DNA from: a virus | Lineage: Duplodnaviria; Caudoviricetes | Strand: one strand, 5' to 3' | Length of the DNA: 36,828 nt | Virus record (IMG/VR): IMGVR_UViG_3300028599_000011 | Coordinates: 1-36,828 of that record | Part shown: positions 1,543-36,828 of the stretch, piece by piece | Layout: every line of letters starts with the position of its first letter | Numbering within the stretch: position 1 is the stretch's first letter | Program-made: the position numbers and the translations under genes | The notes under the pieces: generated by a model | Told to the model about the DNA's origin: nothing | Databases searched by the model: none | What the model saw: only the letters and a program-made list of their open reading frames with translations

Positions 1543-1575
1543 AAGATTATATTAATTTAGCTACCCGAGGGCGCT

Positions 1576-3519: not shown

Positions 3520-5863
3520 CAGTGAGTTACTATCTATTATCGCAGTTCACAGAGATTCCTCTCTGGGTGCTGAAGATACAGAGCTAACAATCGACCGAGC
3601 TGCAGCATTAGACCATTATTACGGCAGGCCATACGGCGACGAAGAGGACGGCCGCTCTCAAGTCGTATCAATGGACTTAAAAGAGACGCTAGATTGGATC
3701 AAGCCAGCATTAATCAAGATATTCGCCCAAAGCGGTAACATTGCTGAGTTCACTCCAATCGGAGAGGACGACGAACAACGTGCCAAGCAAGAAACCGAGA
3801 CCGTTAATCATGTCATTATGGCGAAGAACAACGGCGTCCTGTTATTACACGACCTGTTCCACGATGCGCTCCTGTTAAAAAATGCATATTGCAAACATTA
3901 CTATGAAGAAACAGAGGTTATATCTGAATCAGAATACTCTGGGCTGACCGAAGACGAACTACTGCAGGTTATCCAGGAACTTGAGCAAGATGGAGAAGTT
4001 GAGATAATCGAGCAAGAGCAAGGCGTAGTCTATTTACCCTCTCAAGATGGAACCACAATTGAGGTCCCTGTCTTTGAAATTAGAGTCAGGACCACCACTA
4101 AAGAAAAGAATTATATAGTTGAGCCGATACCAACCGAAGAGGTCCGGGTCTCTAATCGATGCAAAGGCAGCACCCAAACCTCCCCATTCACTGAGCATGT
4201 CACCACCAAAACACGCACAGAATTAATCGAAATGGGAATGCCCACAGACTTTGTTAACAACCTCCCCTCACGAAACGACGAAGACAATGACACGCTAACC
4301 AATGCCAGGGATACGGTAGAAGACGACTTCCAGGAAGACTCCAGCTTTAATGATCGCTCAATGGATGAAATTGAGTACTGCGAGGCATACATCCGCGTTG
4401 ATTTCGATGAGGACAGCAAAGCAGAGCTGAGAAAAGTTATTTCTGTAGGCAATAAGATCCCGCCTGGTAAAGAATGGAACGAAGTGGTTGATTGTGTCGC
4501 TATTACGGCCCTAACCCCGAAACGTGTGCCCCATCGTCACGTAGGCGAATCACTAGATGATGACATTGCTGACTTACAACAGATTAATACCGTCCTAAAA
4601 CGCCAAATGCTGGATAATATCTACCGTATTAACTCAACCGAAAAGGTGGTTAATGATCGGGTTGATATGGATGATGCATTAAGGTCTGAAGCCGGTAACG
4701 TGATTAGAATTGAGGGTGACGCAGAGGTGCAAAGCGCGCTCATGTATACCAAACCACAATCGATTGTTGCTGATATCCTCCCCGCTATTGATATGATCAA
4801 CAAAGATAAAGAAGGTCGGACCGGAATTAATGAGACCAATACCAGTTTAGATCCAAATGTTTTAAAAGATGTGAATAACAAAGTTTATCTTGAGGGAGTC
4901 GCAAAAGCCTCGCAGAAAGTAGAAATGATTGCGCGATTACTCGCTGAAGGGGTTAAAGAAGTTTGCCTAAGAGTCCATGAGCTTCTAATTAAACATCAAG
5001 ATAAAGAAATGTCCTACAAATTAAACGGCCAATATGTCTCAGTTAACCCACAAGAGTGGAAAACCCGTACTGATATGCGTATCACTGTCGGATTAGGGAC
5101 TGGCACCGAGGAAGAGAAACGGATGAAGCTGTCAGCTTTCTCCTCAGAGCAGGAAAGAATGATGCAATTCGGGTTAGTTGGACCACAGCAAGCCTATAAC
5201 CTATTTGAGGATATTGGGCGGTCATTAGGTAGTGAAACCCCCGAAAAATACGTGATGAAGCCAGGCTCTCCAGAGCATCAGCAGTTTATGCAAGCATCAC
5301 AGAAAGACGAGCCTAACCCATTAGCTGAGGCTGAGCAGGTTAAAGGTCAAATCAATATGCAGGTTAAGCAGTTTGAGTCTGATTCAAAAGAACGTATCGA
5401 ACTTGAGCGTGCTAATTTAGAGCGATATAAGGCACAGATTGAGGCTGAGCATAAAGCCCGTGATTTGGATTTAAGAGAGCGTGACCTGGCTGTCAGAGAA
5501 TATGAGGCGGATATCAAAGGTAAGACAGAAGCCGCTAAGATTGAAGCCGATAGATTTAAAGCTGAGCTCAAGGCCGAAACAGATATGGCTATTAATCAAT
5601 TGAAACTTGGCGCAACCTTCCAGGAGGCCGTTGGTACTAAGTTCACCGATATGTCAGAAGATAACGACGAACGGCTAACCGAAATGATTAACTCATTGCT
5701 AGGCGAAATATCCGAAATGAACAGCCAAAATATGGCGGGTATGGAAGGCATAGCTACTGGATTAACAGACCAGGTTAACGGGCTGGCCTCACAAATGGCT
5801 AAACCTAAGAAAGTAATTTATAACGAAGCAGGCGACCCGATAAGAGTCGAACCAATTGAATAG
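3512..5863 (+). CDS. Portal protein (P22-like, long C-terminal coiled coil)
   Basis: Position after terL, 783 aa, YYGRPYGDEEDGRSQVVS N-terminal motif, heptad-rich C-terminus; TTG start. Confidence 0.9.
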   Translation: MNNSELLSIIAVHRDSSLGAEDTELTIDRAAALDHYYGRPYGDEEDGRSQVVSMDLKETLDWIKPALIKIFAQSGNIAEFTPIGEDDEQRAKQETETVNHVIMAKNNGVLLLHDLFHDALLLKNAYCKHYYEETEVISESEYSGLTEDELLQVIQELEQDGEVEIIEQEQGVVYLPSQDGTTIEVPVFEIRVRTTTKEKNYIVEPIPTEEVRVSNRCKGSTQTSPFTEHVTTKTRTELIEMGMPTDFVNNLPSRNDEDNDTLTNARDTVEDDFQEDSSFNDRSMDEIEYCEAYIRVDFDEDSKAELRKVISVGNKIPPGKEWNEVVDCVAITALTPKRVPHRHVGESLDDDIADLQQINTVLKRQMLDNIYRINSTEKVVNDRVDMDDALRSEAGNVIRIEGDAEVQSALMYTKPQSIVADILPAIDMINKDKEGRTGINETNTSLDPNVLKDVNNKVYLEGVAKASQKVEMIARLLAEGVKEVCLRVHELLIKHQDKEMSYKLNGQYVSVNPQEWKTRTDMRITVGLGTGTEEEKRMKLSAFSSEQERMMQFGLVGPQQAYNLFEDIGRSLGSETPEKYVMKPGSPEHQQFMQASQKDEPNPLAEAEQVKGQINMQVKQFESDSKERIELERANLERYKAQIEAEHKARDLDLRERDLAVREYEADIKGKTEAAKIEADRFKAELKAETDMAINQLKLGATFQEAVGTKFTDMSEDNDERLTEMINSLLGEISEMNSQNMAGMEGIATGLTDQVNGLASQMAKPKKVIYNEAGDPIRVEPIE

Positions 5864-26849: not shown

Positions 26850-27181
26850 CCCTCTAACCTCTCAACGTATTCAATGGTAACTTTTAATCTTGCTTCACTT
26901 GGTGAGTCACCTTCTTCTTGAATTAAATAGCTTGGATTAGTTTCAGTCCAGATTGAAGCAAGCCACTGTGTACCTAGAGGCTGAGTATGTATTTTAAATT
27001 CCCTTTCAAGCGCGCTATCTTGGTCTGCGTTTTCGAGTGTGTTAAAAGAGTCTAGGTAAATATAACCACCGTGAGCTAATTTACGAACATCATCTACTGA
27101 TTGAGTTATACCGCGTTTTTTGTCGAGTATTTTATATCCCATAAACTCTGCTAATTTTTTAACCTGCTCCGGTTTAATCAT
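26846..27181 (-). CDS. Hypothetical protein (NinX-like)
   Basis: KLAEFMG...G.SP.EA pattern; ATG 27181 follows AGGTG. Confidence 0.55.
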   Translation of the reverse strand: MIKPEQVKKLAEFMGYKILDKKRGITQSVDDVRKLAHGGYIYLDSFNTLENADQDSALEREFKIHTQPLGTQWLASIWTETNPSYLIQEEGDSPSEARLKVTIEYVERLEG

Positions 27182-27190
27182 CTTGTTCAC

Positions 27191-27451
27191 CTATATAGCT
27201 AGTCTAGGAAATTCAAAAGCACCACCACCGCATTGTGCTCCTATTGCAATATATTTTTCCTTCGGCATATTTATTACTACGGCACCAGATGTACAGTTTT
27301 CATTTACATATTCAGGATTTTCATTCTTCCATTTAGTCATAACTTTTTTTAAGTAGTCATCACCGGCACTGGTTTCAAACCAAAGATTTTTACCAGAAGG
27401 TAATACCAAACAGCAAACTTCTACATATTCTATATTAACTATCTCACTCAT
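27191..27451 (-). CDS. Hypothetical protein
   Basis: ATG 27451 follows AGGTG; flanked by a 21-bp direct repeat. Confidence 0.6.
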   Translation of the reverse strand: MSEIVNIEYVEVCCLVLPSGKNLWFETSAGDDYLKKVMTKWKNENPEYVNENCTSGAVVINMPKEKYIAIGAQCGGGAFEFPRLAI

Positions 27452-27471
27452 CTTATTCACCTATATAGTTG

Positions 27472-28068: not shown

Positions 28069-28215
28069 CTAACCTTTATCCTGTTTAATTAACGACTCAT
28101 ACAAAATAATAATAGCCGCATCTTTAGTGTCTACCCCGAGTATGTCCATAATCTTTTTAACCTGGGCATCTTCAAGCTCTTCATTCGGCTTTATGGCTGT
28201 GTGATCGTCGTTCAT
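28069..28215 (-). CDS. Hypothetical 48-aa protein MNDDHTAIKP...QDKG (not in ORF track)
   Basis: GGAG RBS; its 5' and 3' ends recur elsewhere as repeats. Confidence 0.6.
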   Translation of the reverse strand: MNDDHTAIKPNEELEDAQVKKIMDILGVDTKDAAIIILYESLIKQDKG

Positions 28216-28217
28216 AT

Positions 28218-28686
28218 TTAACTCCATTGTTCGGCCATTGCTTTCATCACCAAAGGAAAGCTTTTACTTCTTTCTTTTGCTCTCTCTGGGCCAGGTGGCA
28301 ACATGTGTTTTATTGGATCTCGTGTCGTTTCTATCATTGTGGACATTAACGGCGGTAAATTTTTAAGCCATAAGCAAAGACCTTTTGTTTCTGGCTCTCC
28401 AAACATCCACGGCTGAATTTTATCGTGGAACCGTCCAACTTTTGTATATACATAGGGATGGGGCTGCGGATTCTCTAAACAGATTTTATCTATCGGCGCA
28501 TCCCATAACGCCTTGAAAAAAACCAACCCTCTTAATGTGCCATTCAGGCTTACCTCCTGAGCAATCTTGGAGATCGCACGAATAAGCCTCATGACCTCGC
28601 GCCCTAAATGCCTTACATCCGACCTGGCTTTCTTCACAAGCCATCAATATTTTCATAGGCTTAATGGCTGTGTGATCGTCTGTCAT
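28218..28686 (-). pseudogene. C5-cytosine DNA methyltransferase-like gene with internal deletion and frameshift
   Basis: N-part KILMACEESQ..AF...GHEAYSCDL in one frame, C-part ICLENP..IQPWMFG..K..CLWLKNLP in another; the PPC catalytic segment is absent. Confidence 0.8.
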
Positions 28687-29249
28687 TTAACTACCTTAAA
28701 TTTCTGACATATCCCTAACAACATATCTTTATTTTCTAACCAGAACTCAAGCGCGCCTCTATCCATAACTTCAATTTCAGCATCTGTGAATTTTTCCAAT
28801 TCGGTTATGTCGTATTCTTTACACCCTATACGCATTTGATTCTTAACTATTTGCACATACCATTTAAGGCCGTGGATGACCAGTCCAGCACCACGCAAAT
28901 CAGCACCACGCAAATCAGCACCATACAAATTAGCGCCACGCAAATCAGCACCACGCAAATCAGCACCACGCAAATCAGCATCATACAAATCAGCACCATA
29001 CAAATTAGCGCCACGCAAATCAGCACCACGCAAATTAGCACCATACAAATTAGCATCACGCAAATTAGCATCACGCAAATCAGCACCACGCAAATCAGCA
29101 CCACGCAAATTAGCGCCACGCAAATCAGCATCATACAAATCAGCACCATACAAATTAGCGCCACGCAAATCAGCACCACGCAAATCAGCATCACGCGAAT
29201 CTACCTTTATTAAAATTTCGCCGGTAAATCTATTTTTTATTTCAATCAT
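28683..29249 (-). CDS. Pentapeptide repeat protein
   Basis: 20 x A(D/N)L(R/Y)(G/D), flanked by IEIKNRFTG and IGC...FW domains. Confidence 0.93.
   Translation of the reverse strand: MIEIKNRFTGEILIKVDSRDADLRGADLRGANLYGADLYDADLRGANLRGADLRGADLRDANLRDANLYGANLRGADLRGANLYGADLYDADLRGADLRGADLRGANLYGADLRGADLRGAGLVIHGLKWYVQIVKNQMRIGCKEYDITELEKFTDAEIEVMDRGALEFWLENKDMLLGICQKFKVVK
28890..29189 (-). repeat. 20 tandem 15-bp units encoding the pentapeptide solenoid
   Basis: Plus-strand consensus ACCACGCAAATCAGC. Confidence 0.95.
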
Positions 29250-29302: not shown

Positions 29303-29485
29303 TCAGTTAACTGAATCGTAACCGCTAATCATGCCTTTAAGGCTTTCAAGATATTTTATTTGCTTAATCAGTCTCAAATTAGCCTCATGACAGCAAACAA
29401 GGGCCGCTTCTGGTGTGTCTTGGCCGTAGAAGGTCGTTATTTCTTTAACGTCCATAGGCTTTATGGCTGTGTGATCGTCTGTCAT
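29303..29485 (-). CDS. Hypothetical protein carrying the MTDDHTAIKP leader
   Basis: ATGA coupling; second Met directly after the leader. Confidence 0.6.
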   Translation of the reverse strand: MTDDHTAIKPMDVKEITTFYGQDTPEAALVCCHEANLRLIKQIKYLESLKGMISGYDSVN

Positions 29486-29733
29486 TTAATTAACCCGCAA
29501 TGGCCTTCTGTGTCATAATTAGTTTCACCTATCTTCTGATTTGCTGCGTTGACAGTAAAAGCCTCATCCCATACCCACATCATACAATCAGACGCTACGC
29601 AACAAAAAGCTGACGGACTTCTATTTCCTTCTGCATTTACATTACACCCATCAGAGTAATTATTATCTGCATCCATTAAATTCGGATAGCGGATATGCGG
29701 GCACCATTTAGTTTTTGCGTCTTCTTCTGTCAT
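29482..29733 (-). CDS. Cys-rich phage protein, probably Zn-binding
   Basis: KWCP...C.AS.CMMW.W...GHCGL pattern. Confidence 0.7.
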   Translation of the reverse strand: MTEEDAKTKWCPHIRYPNLMDADNNYSDGCNVNAEGNRSPSAFCCVASDCMMWVWDEAFTVNAANQKIGETNYDTEGHCGLIK

Positions 29734-29912: not shown

Positions 29913-29923
29913 TTTGCCCTCAC

Positions 29924-29970
29924 TTGTATTTTTCTGTTATAAGTATATACTTATATTAAGTGTTTATAAT
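29924..29970. promoter_or_regulatory. Divergent promoter region with a perfect 18-bp palindrome
   Basis: TATAAGTATATACTTATA at 29938-29955; plus-strand TTGTAT-16-TATACT and TATAAT at 29965. Confidence 0.6.
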
Positions 29971-29984
29971 ATAAGGATACCCTT

Positions 29985-30185
29985 ATGATTAATTATATTA
30001 CTGTTGCACCTACAGCCCGTCAGGAAGATTCCCATGATCTCGATGCTCTTATCCGAGCGGCTCATACTCGCCCTACAGAAGACCTTATACAGCGTATAAT
30101 CGACAAAGGTCTTGATTACCGTGGAAACTATGTCGGTCAAGTTCACGCGGCTTACATCTGGCGTAAGGCTGTTACGAGTCATTAG
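29985..30185 (+). CDS. Hypothetical protein oriented against the surrounding operon
   Basis: AAGGA RBS and promoter upstream; GLDYRGNYVG...IW motif. Confidence 0.6.
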   Translation: MINYITVAPTARQEDSHDLDALIRAAHTRPTEDLIQRIIDKGLDYRGNYVGQVHAAYIWRKAVTSH

Positions 30186-30453: not shown

Positions 30454-30818
30454 CTTGCCTGCCTCACTTTCTGTTCAAAATCTGCCCAAGTATCACCCTT
30501 TTGGGCGGTCATACCTAACCGTTTAGCCTTGTCTTTCCAGTGTTCCTCTACTTCAACTGTGGGGACTTCCCAGTCTTCTTCCCATCCAGCAACCTTTACA
30601 CCGAGAAAAGTCTGCATCTGATAAACGAATTCAGTGTTAATTTTGTCCTTCTTTCTACAATAATTGTAATACCTTAAAACGGCGGCCTGTAAATCACTGT
30701 ACAAGACACCTTCTTTCAGTCTGGCGTTATATTTTTCGTATGCTCCACGTTTAGGATTATTAGGAACCCTTTTAGGGTACATTTTCCAAAGTATTTCAAA
30801 TTTTTCTGGGTATTCCAT
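30450..30818 (-). CDS. Protein resembling the C-terminal domain of phage replication initiators
   Basis: FE.LW..YPKR....K..A..KY...AV.RY...FV....TFLG pattern. Confidence 0.65.
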   Translation of the reverse strand: MEYPEKFEILWKMYPKRVPNNPKRGAYEKYNARLKEGVLYSDLQAAVLRYYNYCRKKDKINTEFVYQMQTFLGVKVAGWEEDWEVPTVEVEEHWKDKAKRLGMTAQKGDTWADFEQKVRQAR

Positions 30819-30827
30819 TGGTTGCCC

Positions 30828-31007
30828 TCACTTTAATAACGAAATCTGCCAATTCCATAATCTAAACCCTTTGTTTCTACTAGAAAATAGCGGAGGATTT
30901 ATATTTCTATTTATTACTAATAACCCGTATCCGTTTAAACGAAACCAAAACCCGCCTAAAAATACGTAGTACACCAGATATTTAGAGATAAACTTTTTCT
31001 TAATCAT
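30828..31007 (-). CDS. Hypothetical 59-aa aromatic/basic protein (not in ORF track)
   Basis: MIKKKFISKYLVYYVFLGGFWFR...SLLK; stop codon lies in the next RBS. Confidence 0.55.
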   Translation of the reverse strand: MIKKKFISKYLVYYVFLGGFWFRLNGYGLLVINRNINPPLFSSRNKGFRLWNWQISLLK

Positions 31008-31072
31008 CTTAATCCGCCTGTACGTTTAGGTTTAATCTTCCAAAGCATTTCAAATTCTGGTGTGTATTCCAT
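31004..31072 (-). pseudogene. 22-codon stub homologous to the start of the replication-like gene
   Basis: MEYTPEFEMLWKIKPKR versus MEYPEKFEILWKMYPKR; identical 21-bp RBS/start region. Confidence 0.75.
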
Positions 31073-31081
31073 TGGTTGCCC

Positions 31082-31207
31082 TCAATCTTTCTTGCTTCTA
31101 ATTAACCAAGTTCCTTCATATTTTGCTGTGATATCTCTTACTAACCCATTCCATTTGCAAGAAAACGGCATTAATAAAAACTTTCTTATATCGCCTATAA
31201 AAATCAT
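31082..31207 (-). CDS. Hypothetical 41-aa protein (not in ORF track)
   Basis: MIFIGDIRKF...RSKKD; fills the gap exactly. Confidence 0.45.
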   Translation of the reverse strand: MIFIGDIRKFLLMPFSCKWNGLVRDITAKYEGTWLIRSKKD

Positions 31208-31333: not shown

Positions 31334-31614
31334 TCTATGACCTCACGAACTTTAATAGTTTCTATAAAGCTCTCTTGTCCGCGTTCTTCAGCCTTATCTT
31401 TAGATACATACGCGAGATGAGGTTCTTTGCTGTAAAGATTTATCCAAAAAAACTCCCTAGGTTTAGGTTTGATGCGGTAGTCATTACCAGGCCAACTCCA
31501 TACTGGGTCGCCAAGCGTATCTTGCCAATTATCAAACCCATTTTGCATGAATTCAATCTCAGCACCATCTTCTGCCGCCTGCATTACTTCTATCTTTTCT
31601 TTTAATGTTTTCAT
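31330..31614 (-). CDS. Conserved-looking phage protein of unknown function
   Basis: IEVMQA..DG..IE...W.W....YRIKPKPRE.WIN pattern; ATG 31614 after GAGGGTAA. Confidence 0.7.
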   Translation of the reverse strand: MKTLKEKIEVMQAAEDGAEIEFMQNGFDNWQDTLGDPVWSWPGNDYRIKPKPREFFWINLYSKEPHLAYVSKDKAEERGQESFIETIKVREVIE

Positions 31615-31649
31615 ATTTACCCTCAATTAATATCTCTAACTTGTTACCT

Positions 31650-31677
31650 AGATTAGCACCGTTATGGTGAATATCAA
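31650..31677 (-). promoter_or_regulatory. Leftward early promoter
   Basis: TTGATA-TTCACCATAACGGTGC-TAATCT (extended -10); twin of the promoter at 32347. Confidence 0.75.
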
Positions 31678-31685
31678 GGAATTAT

Positions 31686-31898
31686 TTAAAATAAAGTCAC
31701 TGGGTTTTTAGGGAATAATACGACACTATTAATTTTAAAATCTATTTCTTCATTCCACCCGACTTTTTCACCGTTAATCACTAGTGCTTTATTCATGGTC
31801 CATCGTTTTAACTCGCCGTTACTGGCTTTACCTTGTCTTTCACGACTCATAAAATGACAAACTTTGTTTAAATCTATTAAAAATTCCCACGCATTCAT
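31686..31898 (-). CDS. Stand-alone S4-like RNA-binding domain protein
   Basis: SNGELKRWTMNKALVINGEKV resembles the S4 alpha-L motif (S.sEarRli..gav.iNGekv) of TyrRS C-terminal domains; GAGGTG RBS. Confidence 0.6.
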   Translation of the reverse strand: MNAWEFLIDLNKVCHFMSRERQGKASNGELKRWTMNKALVINGEKVGWNEEIDFKINSVVLFPKNPVTLF

Positions 31899-31929
31899 AA
31901 TGCACCTCTTTTAAGTTATTTGACCCACA

Positions 31930-32129
31930 AAAATACCACGGTTGAAAACCGTTAATCAATCAGAGGCTTATTAAAGGACTCTGGCAACCGCTTTACCTGT
32001 CTATTGTCAGGTTGTTTTGTCTCGCTCCTGGTTGCACAGGATTGATGCACGCCGTGGTGTATTTTAGGCCGTAGCCCCAGTCTCTTTGCTTTAAATTCAC
32101 AAAGCCTCAAGCGCGAACAGAGTAAAGCG
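31930..32129 (-). ncRNA. Putative multi-stem structured RNA or leader (strand inferred)
   Basis: Nested stems 31930-41/32052-65 and 31955-61/32040-46, three inner hairpins, plus alternative pairing 31989-32000/32117-29. Confidence 0.55.
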
Positions 32130-32169
32130 ATCTAGGAAAAATGTGAGTAAATTAACGAATGTTAATATA

Positions 32170-32198
32170 TTGACGTAGCTTAGTTTTGCCCTTAAACT
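32170..32198 (+). promoter_or_regulatory. Sigma70 promoter for the putative sRNA
   Basis: TTGACG-17 nt-TAAACT; inverted repeat ATTAAC-GAAT-GTTAAT at 32151-32166 just upstream. Confidence 0.7.
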
Positions 32199-32204
32199 AC
32201 ACAC

Positions 32205-32335
32205 ATATTTCGTTGACCCTTGCAGCTTACAATGAGCTTGCCCTCTATGCAAGTGAAATATACCCCGCGTCCCACGCTATGCGGTTTCTCTCAAAGCGTT
32301 TAGCCCTGAAGCCCCCATACTTCAGGGTTTTTTTT
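32205..32335 (+). ncRNA. Putative ~130-nt sRNA with C-rich bulges and loops
   Basis: Bounded by promoter and terminator; stems ATATTTC/GAAATAT, CTTGCA/TGCAAG, GCTT/GAGC, CCGC/GCGG; no RBS-led ORF. Confidence 0.65.
32303..32335 (+). terminator. Strong intrinsic terminator
   Basis: CCCTGAAG-CCCCCATA-CTTCAGGG then T8. Confidence 0.9.
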
Positions 32336-32346
32336 GCATTAACTTC

Positions 32347-32374
32347 TTGATATTCACCGCAGTCGTGCTAATAT
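32347..32374 (+). promoter_or_regulatory. Rightward early promoter
   Basis: TTGATA-TTCACCGCAGTCGTGC-TAATAT (extended -10). Confidence 0.75.
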
Positions 32375-32399
32375 GATATGTAACTGGAGGGCAAAACCA

Positions 32400-32585
32400 A
32401 TGAAAACACTAGAATTTACACATAATCAGGTATCACTTATTGACTACATGGTTAACAAAATGATTAAAAAACGCCGGTTTCAATTCACGCTTGCGACTAC
32501 AGCGCCACAGTATCAGGCCAGTCTAGGCAAGATTAAGGAAGAAATCACAGAACTTGAAAACATTAAACGAATAGTGGGTGAGTAA
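32400..32585 (+). CDS. Hypothetical protein
   Basis: ATG 32400 after GGAGGGCAA; the track start at 32373 lies in the -10 box. Confidence 0.65.
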   Translation: MKTLEFTHNQVSLIDYMVNKMIKKRRFQFTLATTAPQYQASLGKIKEEITELENIKRIVGE

Positions 32586-32998
32586 TGAGGGAGATTAAAT
32601 TCAGGGCGTGGGATATAGAAAATAAGTATTTCGTGAACTCCAATAGGTATTTTATAGAGCTTGATGACGGGACTACTTGGTTCAATCTAGGCACAGATGA
32701 AGGTAGCGATAACTTAGTAGATCAGTCGTTTAAACTTGAATTAATGCAATACACCGGCTTAAAGGATAAGAACGGTAAAGAGATATATTCTGGCGACATT
32801 TTAAACGGATATCACAATAAAGGCTGCGAGAAATGCGGCCACAATGCAAGGACAGTACATTATGAGGTTGTTTTTGAAGACGGTATGTTTGCAACAAAAG
32901 GACATCCTCAATCGTTAGAACGCCAAATGGCATACAGTTCCGAACCTAGTGAGTTTGAAGTAATCGGCAACATATACGAAAACGGAGATTTATTATGA
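32585..32998 (+). CDS. YopX family protein
   Basis: MREIKFRAWD, LMQYTGLKDKNGKEIY.GDIL, EVIGNIYEN. Confidence 0.93.
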   Translation: MREIKFRAWDIENKYFVNSNRYFIELDDGTTWFNLGTDEGSDNLVDQSFKLELMQYTGLKDKNGKEIYSGDILNGYHNKGCEKCGHNARTVHYEVVFEDGMFATKGHPQSLERQMAYSSEPSEFEVIGNIYENGDLL

Positions 32999-33150
32999 GC
33001 AACTGTGACGATTTAATGGAGCTTGAAGTTGAATTAAAAACTCTGGACTTCGACGGAACCAGGTTAGACGATCTTGAAGACTTCCGTAATAGTGACGACG
33101 AAGATCAAGACCGCCCTGACTGGGATATGACCGACAATGACTACTTCTAA
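32995..33150 (+). CDS. Highly acidic 51-aa protein (not in ORF track)
   Basis: GGAG RBS, ATGA coupling; 20 D/E versus 4 K/R. Confidence 0.65.
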   Translation: MSNCDDLMELEVELKTLDFDGTRLDDLEDFRNSDDEDQDRPDWDMTDNDYF

Positions 33151-33250
33151 ACTCCCACATATATGCGGAACAGTTTGTATAGTCTTATTCTGGACAGCTT
33201 TTGCAATAATATTTATCGGTCAGGCAATTTATAGGATTATAGTAGACTAA
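33137..33250 (+). CDS. 37-aa single-TM peptide (not in ORF track)
   Basis: MTTSKLPHICGTVCIVLFWTAFAIIFIGQAIYRIIVD. Confidence 0.5.
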   Translation: MTTSKLPHICGTVCIVLFWTAFAIIFIGQAIYRIIVD

Positions 33251-33266
33251 CAATTACACCTAACTT

Positions 33267-33287
33267 AGCCCCTTAACTGGGGTTTTT
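33267..33287 (+). terminator. Terminator-like hairpin inside a longer stem
   Basis: AGCCCC-TTAACT-GGGGTT-TTT; outer pairing 33255-63/33286-94. Confidence 0.55.
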
Positions 33288-33456
33288 GGGTGCAGAAGGC
33301 GGACACGGAGCCGTCATTATTATATTTCTTTTAACACGTTAAGAGGATAGAAAAATGCAAATTAGGGGGTAAATCCCCAGAATCTGACAAATTCCGGTAA
33401 GCCGCTTAATTGCGGCTTTGCTGGTAGAGAAACTAGATTATAAACGAGGGCAAATC

Positions 33457-33684
33457 ATGAAATGTTTACTATTAGCAATAACTTTAAGCGGGTGTGCTTC
33501 AATGCAAGTAACCCCCATCGAGTTCATCGATAAAATGGCAGAACGAAAATGTGAGTTCAAAATGGTGGCAATGAGAACATCGGACAACGAACATGGCTCT
33601 GAGGTTGAAGTTCAAACTGTATGCGCTTCTAAGCCTTTGGTATTAAAGCCTAGTGCATTTAAACGAGAAGGGGAGCAATTCTAA
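33457..33684 (+). CDS. Small lipoprotein
   Basis: MKCLLLAITLSG-C lipobox; GAGGGCAA RBS. Confidence 0.75.
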   Translation: MKCLLLAITLSGCASMQVTPIEFIDKMAERKCEFKMVAMRTSDNEHGSEVEVQTVCASKPLVLKPSAFKREGEQF

Positions 33685-34161: not shown

Positions 34162-34428
34162 ATGACTGATAGAGTAGCAGAGTGGATCAAACAAGCTAAG
34201 AAAAGAAACGGCACAAAATTAGCATGTGTTGACGAGCTAAATAAGGAATGCGGAACAGATATCCCTTTGAAAAGTCTTAATTCAATGGAGACAGGAAATA
34301 GGAACGTACCTGATTCTATCCGTAGAAAAATGTTAGTTGACGTTCTTAAAGTGGAGCTGGCAAACATGCCGAGCTATAAGAGAAAGAAACTTATAGCCAA
34401 GTTACTTCTGCCGGTGAGGGTTAAATAA
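34162..34428 (+). CDS. Putative XRE/Cro-like HTH regulator
   Basis: Small and basic; SLNSMETGNRNVP resembles the XRE recognition-helix end. Confidence 0.6.
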   Translation: MTDRVAEWIKQAKKRNGTKLACVDELNKECGTDIPLKSLNSMETGNRNVPDSIRRKMLVDVLKVELANMPSYKRKKLIAKLLLPVRVK

Positions 34429-34800: not shown

Positions 34801-34942
34801 TAAAGACCCACTAAAAGACTTAACAAAACTTCTTGAGGAAAAATACAAGGAGATTATTGAGCTGAAAAGAGAAAAAGGCCAGCTATGCGAGCAGATAATG
34901 AAGCTGGAGTATATTATAGAAACTTTCGAGGTGAAAAAATGA
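34793..34942 (+). CDS. 49-aa coiled-coil protein (not in ORF track)
   Basis: AAGGA RBS; overlaps both neighbours. Confidence 0.55.
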   Translation: MIDKDPLKDLTKLLEEKYKEIIELKREKGQLCEQIMKLEYIIETFEVKK

Positions 34943-35259
34943 GTATGGTCTCGCCTTTATGGAAAGACAACCCTATAAGAAGCAAGAAATATCTAAAGTG
35001 GGTGAGAACGCTAGATTGCTGTTTTTGTGGTGGCCCTGGCGGTGTTGCACATCACGCAATCGGAGTCGGTGAGGGCGGAATGGGAACGAAAGCATCAGAT
35101 TTTGAAACCATGCCTTCATGCTGGATCTGTCATGACGGTAAATTTCACAGATTAGATCTGTTTCCAGGACTCAGACAGGATCAATGGCGATTTGTAGCTA
35201 AAACACTTCAGAAAGCCATTAAAGACGGCATAATAAGTGAGATTCAAGATGAGTTATGA
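34939..35259 (+). CDS. DUF968-family (HNH-like Zn) protein
   Basis: RSKKYLKWVR.L.CCFCG..HH..G...GGMGTKASD...P.C..CH; ATG 34939 after GAGGTG. Confidence 0.8.
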   Translation: MSMVSPLWKDNPIRSKKYLKWVRTLDCCFCGGPGGVAHHAIGVGEGGMGTKASDFETMPSCWICHDGKFHRLDLFPGLRQDQWRFVAKTLQKAIKDGIISEIQDEL

Positions 35260-35443
35260 AAAGTCGCAAAATCTTTTGAAGGATATCCGAAATAAGACCG
35301 GGCTTAACGTTGTATGCCCTATATTAGAAAAGGGTAGGTGGAAGGTTTTTATTTTACCAGAAGATATGCCTAGCTATATTTACGACAGAGATAAACATTG
35401 GTATGACGTTTCATATCTATTGAAAATGGTTATAAATAATTAG
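35237..35443 (+). CDS. Hypothetical protein
   Basis: ORF overlapping the DUF968 end; start uncertain. Confidence 0.55.
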   Translation: MRFKMSYEKSQNLLKDIRNKTGLNVVCPILEKGRWKVFILPEDMPSYIYDRDKHWYDVSYLLKMVINN

Positions 35444-35471
35444 TGGCATGTTCACCGTAACAGTGTATGCT
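35444..35471 (+). promoter_or_regulatory. Putative recT-ssb promoter carrying the TTCACC-N6-GTG box
   Basis: TGGCAT-GTTCACCGTAACAGTG-TATGCT. Confidence 0.5.
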
Positions 35472-35492
35472 ATAGAAAAACGAGGGCAGAAA

Positions 35493-36620
35493 ATGAATAA
35501 TCTAGTTACACAAGTCGATAATGCAGTAACAGGCGCAGCCGGACAGTTCGTCTCTACGCTTTCTCAGTATAAGTGGGACTTGCTCCCAGATTCCCAGCTA
35601 CACGCCGCCAAGCAAGCTCTAACGAAGAATGATTATATTATGAATGTAGCGGCTAATAACCCAGAATCAGTTCATGAATCGCTTATTCAGGCAGCTATCC
35701 TCGGCTTAGACTTGACGGAAGGGAAACGGCAAGGTTGGTTATTACCGAGAAAGAGTCAGAAAAAAGATGCTAAAGGTAACGCCATCACAAACATACAACT
35801 TCAAGTCGGTTATAAGGGAGTTGAAGCCATTCATCAGAGAATGGGGGTAATTGACCGCTTAGTTATTCGGGTTGTGAGAAAAAATGATTCGTTTGAATGG
35901 TCTGGCGACGATCAAGAAAAACCAAAGCATGAGGCTGATTGGTTTGCAGACAACGAAACACGGGGAGAAATATCAGGCGCGTTCGCAATTACTTATTTAC
36001 CAGACGGGAACATACATGTCGTTGTTGCTCCAATAACAGATATTTTTGAGAAACATCGCGACCGCTCAGAGTCCTATAAATCTTATAAAGCCAAAACAGA
36101 TAAAAAGCAATGGGCGCATGAGCCGCCTTGGGTGTCTGATGAAAAATCAATGGTCGAAAAGACCATGGCGTATATCGCAGCGAAGCAATGGCCTGCAAAT
36201 ATCCGAGACAGCGAGCAATCTTCTAAGATACTACAAACCCTACACGAAACAGATATTGCGGATTATAACTACCAGTACACCACACAACAAAAAGAAGCTT
36301 TCTATTCATTCATCGAAAATGACGATCCACTAGGCATGTTTTTATTTGAAAAGCGTGTAGATATGGAAGTTTACACCTCGTTACATCGTGGAATGATCGG
36401 CGCTATTCCTCGTGGAGGGAAAACTCAGAGAAGAAAAGAACACGCCGATTTTGTCAGTACTGGCGAAAATGTTTTCTTTGATATTCTTAAATCATTAGAC
36501 AGTAAAGATGCAGGCCAATTATCTGAAAATGTAGAGGGTTGTTCAGAGATAACTATGAAACTATTGAATGCCGCTCTAAATAAAGATCAACAACGAGAGT
36601 TTGAGGAATTAATGAAATGA
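35493..36620 (+). CDS. recT: RecT/Redbeta-family single-strand annealing protein
   Basis: AAILGLDL, WLLPR, QLQVGYKG, VRKNDSF, PW..D..SM..KT; ATG 35493 after GAGGGCAG. Confidence 0.9.
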   Translation: MNNLVTQVDNAVTGAAGQFVSTLSQYKWDLLPDSQLHAAKQALTKNDYIMNVAANNPESVHESLIQAAILGLDLTEGKRQGWLLPRKSQKKDAKGNAITNIQLQVGYKGVEAIHQRMGVIDRLVIRVVRKNDSFEWSGDDQEKPKHEADWFADNETRGEISGAFAITYLPDGNIHVVVAPITDIFEKHRDRSESYKSYKAKTDKKQWAHEPPWVSDEKSMVEKTMAYIAAKQWPANIRDSEQSSKILQTLHETDIADYNYQYTTQQKEAFYSFIENDDPLGMFLFEKRVDMEVYTSLHRGMIGAIPRGGKTQRRKEHADFVSTGENVFFDILKSLDSKDAGQLSENVEGCSEITMKLLNAALNKDQQREFEELMK

Positions 36621-36828
36621 GCAGTTTAAATCAATGTCAGTTTATAGGTAATTTAGGAAAAGACCCTGAAGTACGATACACCTCAGACGGTAAAGCAATA
36701 GCCAGCTTCAGCCTTGCTTGCTCTGAGAAATGGAAAGATAAAAACTCAGGCGAACAAGTGGAAAAAACAGAGTGGATCAATATCTCTGCATTCGGAAGAT
36801 TAGCTGAAGTAATGGGCGAATACCTAAA
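36617..36828 (+). CDS. ssb: Single-stranded DNA-binding protein (truncated by window end)
   Basis: MSSLNQCQFIGNLGKDPEVRYT..G..IASFSLA.SE.WKDK..GE..E.TEWI. Confidence 0.95.
   Translation, partial: MSSLNQCQFIGNLGKDPEVRYTSDGKAIASFSLACSEKWKDKNSGEQVEKTEWINISAFGRLAEVMGEYL

Follow-up and report, generated by a model that had tools for sequence, protein, structure and literature searches.

The question raised by this locus is whether a short transcript, encoded in the 500-bp gap between the leftward and rightward gene arms of an uncultured tailed phage, acts in trans upon the ribosome-binding sites (RBSs) of several of the phage's own genes, as an initial annotation of the DNA had proposed. The window, that is, the whole stretch analyzed here, is an entire contig of 36,828 bp whose best-matching runs are marine sediment metagenomes and whose ends do not overlap, so that part of the genome is missing. 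The host is presumably gammaproteobacterial, since the terminases of phages infecting Pseudomonas, Vibrio, Aeromonas, Shewanella and enterobacteria share 42-48% identity with that of the contig. The genes are laid out as follows:

about 1.8-25 kb: terminase, portal, scaffold and capsid genes
26-32 kb: leftward accessory arm
32.4-36.8 kb: rightward arm, with YopX, recT and a truncated ssb

There is no tRNA or tmRNA in the window; ORF 32400 has no family assigned in Atlas, and ORF 1576, presumed by position only to be the terminase small subunit gene, has no PHROG or Pfam family match. In the leftward arm, a DNA methyltransferase-like gene (phrog_757; 28218-28686, minus strand) is split over two overlapping frames and is therefore frameshifted or decayed, an ORF at 28683-29249 (minus strand) carries a 15-bp tandem repeat and codes for a pentapeptide-repeat-like protein, and a lone rightward gene (29985-30185, plus strand) lies divergent from ORF 29912, with an AT-rich inverted repeat (29939-29986, I22) between the two. 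Gene-start cassettes are repeated in this arm at 28183-28222, 28654-28693 and 29453-29492, and further such pairs occur at 27178-27198 and 27448-27468 and at 30771-30830 and 31025-31084 (for the three sets, repeat families D4, D14 and D5); these repeats are consistent with gene shuffling at boundary repeats, and the joints of variant contigs lie near some of them.

The putative RNA unit and its variants

The initial annotation had delimited some 130 nt by a promoter and a strong terminator, and both elements are indeed present. The unit comprises the following features, all on the plus strand:

32160-32168: possible upstream extended -10 promoter P1, TGnTAATAT, its hexamer the same as that at 32366
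32170-32198: sigma-70-type promoter P2, TTGACG-17-TAAACT, with a predicted start at about 32205
32180-32201: second TTGCCCT-containing arm, in the P2 spacer (repeat I23), transcribed only from P1
32205-32336: candidate small RNA of about 132 nt, judged by its fold z against shuffles
32205-32261: hairpin 1, with an outer stem, a C-rich 5' bulge (32213-32218), a middle stem (32219-32224/32248-32253) and a variable tip
32238-32245: seed UUGCCCUC, the complement of GAGGGCAA
32265-32284: hairpin 2, with a C-rich loop
32302-32335: intrinsic terminator, a 10-bp stem (32302-32329) followed by a U-run

P2 attains a promoter score of only 9/12, and the region has no excess of promoter-like sites (23 versus 25.7 in shuffles). 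The plus strand folds better than shuffles (z -3.19 and -3.93), in agreement with the structured RNA that had been envisaged. The more specific claim, that a hairpin leaves 32238-32247 unpaired, holds for an alternative fold (-10.8 kcal/mol) but not for the minimum-energy fold (-12.3 kcal/mol), which is 1.5 kcal/mol more stable, pairs the UGC of the seed and leaves open only 32242-32249; the predicted cost of opening the seed 8-mer is 1.55 kcal/mol. The candidate RNA contains several C-rich open stretches, and C/U-rich unpaired stretches precede its terminator. The minus strand yields a z of -1.23 and has neither promoter nor terminator there, and a decoy RNA carrying the tag in sense is accordingly disfavoured.

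Transcription from P1 is possible and would yield a longer RNA of about 160 nt, inclusive of the arm at 32180-32201, which is complementary to the leader of ORF 32400 at 17 of 22 nt (duplex -19.6 kcal/mol). The P2 transcript excludes this second TTGCCCT, which could be a P1-transcribed second arm, a relic of an inverted leader that gave rise to the RNA, or a DNA site.

Three neighbouring stretches may be mentioned in their own right. A separate structured RNA at 31920-32075 was considered and rejected, the folding being non-significant on both strands (z -1.5 and -1.7); this stretch forms the long leader in front of the leftward arm and contains a number of small hairpins together with a closing stem. 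Just 5' of the candidate RNA, 32079-32142 (plus strand) gives a sub-threshold match to Ocean-V RNA (25.6 bits, E 0.014, gathering score 75). A second hairpin-rich gap, of 300 nt (33150-33457, z -2.81), has terminator-like sites on both strands and could hold another RNA.

The relatives that bear the RNA are near-identical contigs only, from 4 runs of 2 studies; no RNA run is listed among those containing the region, which carries no weight as to expression. In one variant (X5 record 9), for which all 5 differences are listed, the edge of the 5' bulge, one pair of the tip and position 32263 are changed; in another (X3 record 1 and X4 record 3, with 2 of 8 substitutions, near the ends, not among the differences listed) the bulge edge and the tip are changed as well, and the seed is bracketed by a deletion (32237) on one side and an insertion (behind 32246) on the other. 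Among the changes listed for these two different hairpin variants, none falls within the seed or the middle stem, and in both, as read by hand, the 3-bp helix found only in the minimum-energy fold is disrupted, a point in favour of the open-seed fold. The X3/X4 variant retains the -35 hexamer at the same spacing and has a different 5' spacer (in a loose end before 32185). In place of hairpin 2 the relatives have other sequence, which by eye still forms a hairpin with a C-rich loop (seen in loose ends of the contigs), and their terminators are replaced at the same place by other terminator-like ends. The leader of ORF 32400 is kept in X3 record 1 and is followed by different sequence, and one relative has 337 other bases between the RNA unit and ORF 32400. 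Such a pattern of variation is what one would expect if the RNA were a functional module and the tagged leader portable, but it amounts to conservation among very close sequences and not to covariation. In a separate observation, related contigs skip the DUF968/HNH-like gene (34930-35430) and replace recT (35493-36650) behind the same tagged leader, so that the leader is kept while the gene changes.

A tag at gene starts and its predicted pairing

The sequence complementary to the seed occurs, exactly or with variation, before the following genes:

29914-29921, minus strand: tag GAGGGCAA before ORF 29912 (first gene)
30822-30829, minus strand: tag before ORF 30818 (internal gene; replication-initiator-like fragment)
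31076-31083, minus strand: tag before ORF 31072 (22 aa; internal; duplicate of the 30818 start)
31617-31624, minus strand: variant GAGGGTAA before ORF 31614 (first gene after its own promoter)
32387-32394, plus strand: tag before ORF 32400 (first gene); best predicted duplex
33446-33453, plus strand: tag before ORF 33457 (first gene of the operon with the helix-turn-helix gene)
35482-35489, plus strand: variant GAGGGCAG before recT, ORF 35493 (first gene)
1567-1574, plus strand: weaker 6-nt match before ORF 1576

All of these sites had been named in the initial annotation. The exact GAGGGCAA occurs six times in the window, a number that none of 100 shuffles reaches; five copies end 1, 3, 3, 5 and 3 nt upstream of the ATGs of ORFs 29912, 30818, 31072, 32400 and 33457, respectively, and the sixth is the antisense copy (32238-32245) within the RNA unit. 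The chance expectation, put at under one copy in that annotation, is about one (1.04), and the looser GAGGGYRR, whose count it had suggested as a check, has 16 matches versus 5.47 expected. In an unbiased scan of G-rich start-linked 7-mers, GAGGGCA ranks first in the window, with six of its seven copies preceding an ATG and the seventh in the non-coding loop of the candidate RNA, and it is not listed as a start-linked 7-mer for any of 16 other records or loci scanned, nor for 5 more. Before ATGs, the exact 8-mer has 5-9 copies per genome of 2.5-2.8 Mb in three bacterial genomes, versus 5 among the 66 genes here. The copies are not independent, since the tags of ORFs 30818 and 31072, which overlap the upstream stop codon, belong to genes that are one duplication (family D5), and the promoters of ORFs 31614 and 32400 are homologous (I1).

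The distribution of the tag is uneven. Genes tagged with GAGGGYAR make up 7 of the 35 starting beyond 26 kb and none of the 33 before (p 0.011), and the tag stands on 5 of 13 operon leaders versus 2 of 55 other genes (p 0.002), where a leader was defined mechanically by a gap of at least 40 nt or by divergence, so that a few may be artefacts of missed small genes, and where both counts include two small ORFs, added by hand, that make ORF 31072 internal. The assertion that the RNA is antisense to the first gene of nearly every operon is thus too strong: ORFs 30818 and 31072 are internal, and the tagged leaders come to 6 of 13 even if the 6-nt match at ORF 1576 is counted.

Nor are the tagged sites stronger Shine-Dalgarno (SD) sequences than average, and the reading of the tag as just a strong SD, named in the initial annotation as what might refute it, was rejected: their SD pairing amounts to -6.1 to -9.8 kcal/mol versus a median of -6.4 (calculated against the anti-SD motif), and that of the seed with the tags to -12.9 to -16.4 kcal/mol. 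The three bases 3' of GAGGG are CAA, TAA or CAG in 7 of 10 start regions, at positions where, we assume, 16S pairing is not to be expected. The substitutions tolerated within the tag (C to T, A to G) are of the kind that G-U pairs accommodate. Elsewhere, in G005 (L137, about 8475, minus strand), the canonical SD 7-mer AGGAGAA has six copies, five before an ATG and the sixth non-coding, a comparable pattern that tells against the proposed action in trans and may be either a chance parallel or an anti-SD RNA.

When the first 99 nt of the RNA were scanned against the 66 start regions with correction for accessibility, the seven tagged genes ranked 1-7, a ranking that is in line with the initial annotation and partly circular because the tag had been chosen for its complementarity. 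Their predicted energies are -13.3 to -10.0 kcal/mol versus a median of -4.8, all of them pair via 32238-32245/47, and ORF 1576 ranks eighth; looser matches fall at 29733, 31898 and 33684. Once the seven tagged genes are removed, predicted pairing in the early arm does not exceed that in the late arm (p 0.11). Dinucleotide-shuffled RNAs match an equal number of start regions in 11-29 of 1000 cases (16-29 of 1000 with the duplicate removed), and the 8-mer is present in 62 of 5000 shuffles of the RNA; the chance of such a seed being placed in a C-rich RNA is about 1-3%, which is significant, neither overwhelming nor negligible. A pairing of 8 bp is short, and a chaperone may be needed.

A protein layer of control is also likely, given a helix-turn-helix (HTH)-like ORF and operator-like repeats in three tagged leaders:

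34162-34428, plus strand: 88-aa likely Xre/Cro-type HTH protein, from its predicted structure
31657-31671, minus strand: operator-like TTCACC-N6-GTG in the promoter of ORF 31614 (I1)
32353-32367, plus strand: operator-like TTCACC-N6-GTG in the promoter of ORF 32400 (I1)
35451-35465, plus strand: operator-like TTCACC-N6-GTG upstream of recT

The model of the 88-aa protein has five helices (pLDDT 61), and the top ranks of its structural neighbours in two Foldseek lists are nearly all HTH regulators, with best E values of 0.16-0.4 and none at E <= 0.001; these two sub-significant lists suggest that it is likely a regulator of the Xre/Cro type. The repeat is an imperfect inverted one, in or near the promoter of 3 of the 7 tagged genes.

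A proposed brake on early genes and its alternatives

Taken together, the promoter-like site, the terminator, the fold, the enrichment of the tag, the exact complementarity and the retention of hairpin 1 and seed in near-identical phages confirm, at the level of sequence, the arrangement of tag and anti-tag that had been noted, and make this a credible candidate sRNA-tag system. We favour the reading that 32205-32336 encodes a trans-acting antisense brake on early genes that works by base-pairing to the RBS tags, to which we would give a probability of roughly 0.55. What stands of the initial interpretation is therefore an independent, structured RNA whose accessible seed is complementary to an RBS tag private to the phage; its role as master repressor does not, and the RNA is likely a brake on early protein synthesis rather than the sole master repressor.

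Beyond the complementarity and the predicted accessibility, every step of the mechanism is one that we infer. The host sigma-70 polymerase would transcribe the RNA together with the early genes; the exposed loop UUGCCCUC would pair with the GAGGGYAR tag overlapping the SD sites of seven non-structural genes; the stable RNA would accumulate and block 30S loading on all seven, five of them at the head of operons and two internal; and genes further downstream would be affected through coupling or polarity. The outcome would be a timed shut-off of early functions (recT-ssb, accessory genes) that spares the structural genes. The RNA probably complements rather than replaces a protein layer, in which the HTH protein would act on the CACC-N5-(G)GTG-type repeats, and a longer RNA from the upstream promoter could contribute a second arm. 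A bolder version, which we hold only tentatively and somewhat short of even odds, is that a private 8-nt RBS barcode marks the early-gene class and that one RNA bearing the complementary code, possibly with two arms, shuts the class off. Were this true, the compact tag/anti-tag pair would constitute an RNA-read translational regulon in place of a protein of the kind of T4 RegA, and any gene brought behind a tagged leader by recombination would join it; the pair would also offer a concrete, testable mechanism for start-associated sequences, unexplained since 2011, and could explain how lambdoid-type phages that lack an obvious CI shut off their early genes. In a search of the openly accessible literature, main texts only, no publication turned up that demonstrates recognition of a shared RBS tag across a phage's own early genes by a phage RNA, and the phage antisense RNAs treated in section 4 and Table 1 of a 2025 review target one phage gene or operon, or host genes (PMC12197685).

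A first alternative, shared ancestry combined with coincidence, we regard as unlikely, if well worth weighing: the tag would have spread with promoter-leader cassettes by duplication and recombination, and the RNA would be real, yet either a generic C-rich anti-SD RNA of the anti-hemB or toxic-sRNA-like kind, directed at mRNAs of the host or others, or an inverted-leader relic, its match to the tag being unselected in both cases. Gene-start duplications abound in the arm (D4, D5, D7, D14, I1), the alignment of the minus strand of 32180-32209 with the leader of ORF 32400 beats 1000 of 1000 shuffles (the shared 7-mer being included in the score), the 3' half of the RNA is a sub-threshold match to anti-hemB (28.3 bits, E 4e-4, gathering score 49.5), and the RNA has the several C-rich open stretches already described. 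Against this, the core of the tag stays constant while its flanks differ among copies, the recurrent bases 3' of GAGGG extend beyond the expected 16S pairing, no seed change is listed in variants whose neighbouring bases are altered, and it seems unlikely that, in the absence of selection, useful genes of a phage would retain sites matching its own inhibitor perfectly. The notion that the RNA confers immunity, silencing a prophage or carrier state and blocking superinfection like P4 CI, strikes us as distinctly improbable. RNA-based immunity does exist in P4 and P1/P7 (PMC4825925, PMC5320573), the tag favours operon leaders, and no CI-type repressor is found among the PHROG or Pfam matches; yet 8 of 13 leaders lack the tag, and the likely Xre/Cro-type protein and the operator-like repeats in three tagged promoters speak against the setting of "no visible CI repressor" in which a master repressor had been proposed. 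Moreover, a scan of 64 ORFs of the incomplete contig revealed neither an integrase nor a partition gene, and no integrase is annotated in four cultured terminase relatives (two of them thinly annotated), so that immunity is not the first reading and nothing points to a lysogenic state that would need maintenance. The tagged fraction of leaders, the HTH-like protein, the operator-like repeats and the lack of an integrase in the incomplete contig thus leave the master-repressor form unsupported.

More improbable still is that AGGGCAA is a protein-binding site in DNA or RNA (e.g., for the HTH protein) that doubles as an RBS, with the copies in the RNA gene and the spacer serving as autoregulatory operators. 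Such a view would accommodate the facts that 7 of the 9 copies of AGGGCAA lie within 29.9-33.5 kb, that one of them occupies a promoter spacer, the classic operator position, and that several tags lie, by eye, at about +1 to +10 of predicted promoters; but the 7-mer alone is not enriched (9 versus 5.26 expected, equalled in 15 of 100 shuffles), the site is asymmetric and bound to a spacing of 1-5 nt from the start codon, two mid-operon genes included, its tolerated variants fit G-U pairing, and a separate palindromic candidate operator exists. Least probable among these readings is a regulation in cis only, whereby, in a read-through leader, the seed or the upstream arm would fold onto the RBS of ORF 32400, as in P4 seqC. 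Predicted read-through transcripts do pair 32238-32245 or 32183-32193 with 32387-32397, and ORF 32400 provides the best duplex; nonetheless, a strong terminator and a separate promoter intervene, the 337 other bases of one relative fall there, and six distant tags would be left unexplained.

Homolog searches and known systems

Searches for more distant homologs returned no match in IMG/VR to an exact 20-mer, 3 matches to a stem-seed-stem pattern, none with promoter, outer stem or terminator context, 41 matches to a promoter-seed-U-run pattern, none with this hairpin, and 16 viral and 36 GTDB matches to a seed-free scaffold pattern, which by eye are due to chance. Nothing meaningful emerged from blastn against cultured phages and plasmids. 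A one-sequence covariance model of low sensitivity (R1) recovered only the source itself among 43 sources, one weak match in 35 records (in an apparent coding region, fold z 0.07) and none in 151 genomes of the class of G046. Phages sharing RecT, the capsid protein or ORF 31898 (in the capsid-based comparison, 20 capsid and RecT records plus others, out of 45 loci) lack the RNA and an enriched tag and have at most 2 exact tags; being too distant or mosaic, and many of them fragments, they neither support nor refute the proposed brake.

The closest parallel to the tag is found in the start-associated sequences (SAS/ESAS) of cluster K mycobacteriophages; the paper that described them left open whether the partner is RNA or protein and noted opposite-strand copies (PMC3203893), and a 2025 paper still calls their function unverified (PMC12699233). 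Like SAS/ESAS, so far as these accounts describe them, the tag is a start-linked, asymmetric RBS repeat with conserved bases beyond the SD core, unable to pair with 16S rRNA. SAS/ESAS lie mostly outside structural genes, often after intergenic gaps, with rare opposite-strand copies; the tag is found only in non-structural genes. Inverted repeats stand upstream of a subset of SAS/ESAS sites; the much shorter CACC-N5-(G)GTG-type repeat found upstream of 3 of 7 tags may or may not be their counterpart. The tag GAGGGYAR differs in having 8 nt versus the 13 bp of the SAS consensus, another sequence (by eye) and 7 copies versus 11-19, and in a host that is presumably gammaproteobacterial; furthermore, a candidate partner can be named here, since the opposite-strand copy falls within a loop encoded between a promoter and a terminator.

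On the side of the RNA, c4 of P1/P7 and CI of P4 are likewise structured phage RNAs whose exposed loops pair with the phage's own mRNA (PMC5320573, PMC4825925), and the b' loop of c4 is described as occluding ribosome-binding sites (PMC5320573). As far as those descriptions go, however, both c4 and CI arise by processing of a longer precursor, with RNase P as the enzyme for c4, and target the operon that encodes them, seqA lying upstream and seqC downstream of CI, whereas the candidate RNA looks independently terminated and has its targets scattered over several operons and both strands. The operon-internal targets of c4 in P1/P7 are reportedly icd and ant. Of the two flanks of the candidate RNA, the downstream one has a complement of the seed (32387-32394), and the upstream one has a copy (32186-32192) that is in the same sense as the seed and hence not a target. 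The c4 antisense RNA (RF01695) is absent from the 10 Rfam matches at E <= 10 in 31600-33500, and no Rfam family reaches its gathering score over the whole window.

The nearest multi-operon case is SviR, an RNA of the Vibrio cholerae satellite PLE, which is an element-encoded trans-acting sRNA that regulates several of its own operons, with one seed near the 5' UTR (bioRxiv 10.1101/2022.04.08.487710); it differs in being a satellite RNA that is induced by the helper phage and has a second seed for helper targets, and no shared RBS tag is described in the portion available. C/U-rich open loops complementary to RBSs and a terminator end are also known of anti-hemB (RF02837), the toxic double-hairpin sRNAs (RF02278) and the cuckoo RNAs (PMC5688073, PMC1950547, PMC4615179), which, by contrast, are chromosomal RNAs with a canonical anti-SD motif. 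The anti-hemB score of the candidate RNA given above, and its 16.1 bits against RF02278 (gathering score 50), fall far short of gathering and reflect hairpin 2 plus the terminator, the seed hairpin having no part in them. Cuckoo RNAs are described as 2-4 adjacent hairpins, each with a CCUCCUCCC loop (PMC4615179), and this loop is absent from the folded sequence of the candidate RNA. As judged by model score or motif, then, the candidate is not a c4, CI, anti-hemB, toxic sRNA or cuckoo RNA, though it would resemble c4 in covering ribosome sites and SviR in acting on more than one operon of its own element. With trans-acting sRNAs in general it shares, by prediction, an accessible seed complementary to target starts, its conservation being confined to near-identical phages.

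A different kind of hairpin was encountered in eight loci of unrelated phages with, by eye, a T7-like gene order (L092, L096, L097, L116, L123, L103, L106 and L108), where a consensus promoter is followed, just 5' of an ssb-like gene, by a long hairpin with a C/U-rich loop of 24-29 nt, matched in most of them at about 5001-5155. The top-ranked pairing of this loop in L092 and L097 is with the RBS and start of a 559-aa primase/helicase-like ORF (-23.8 and -23.9 kcal/mol), and the primase/helicase-like ORF ranks second as a target in L103; these hairpins are possibly a separate family of anti-SD RNAs.
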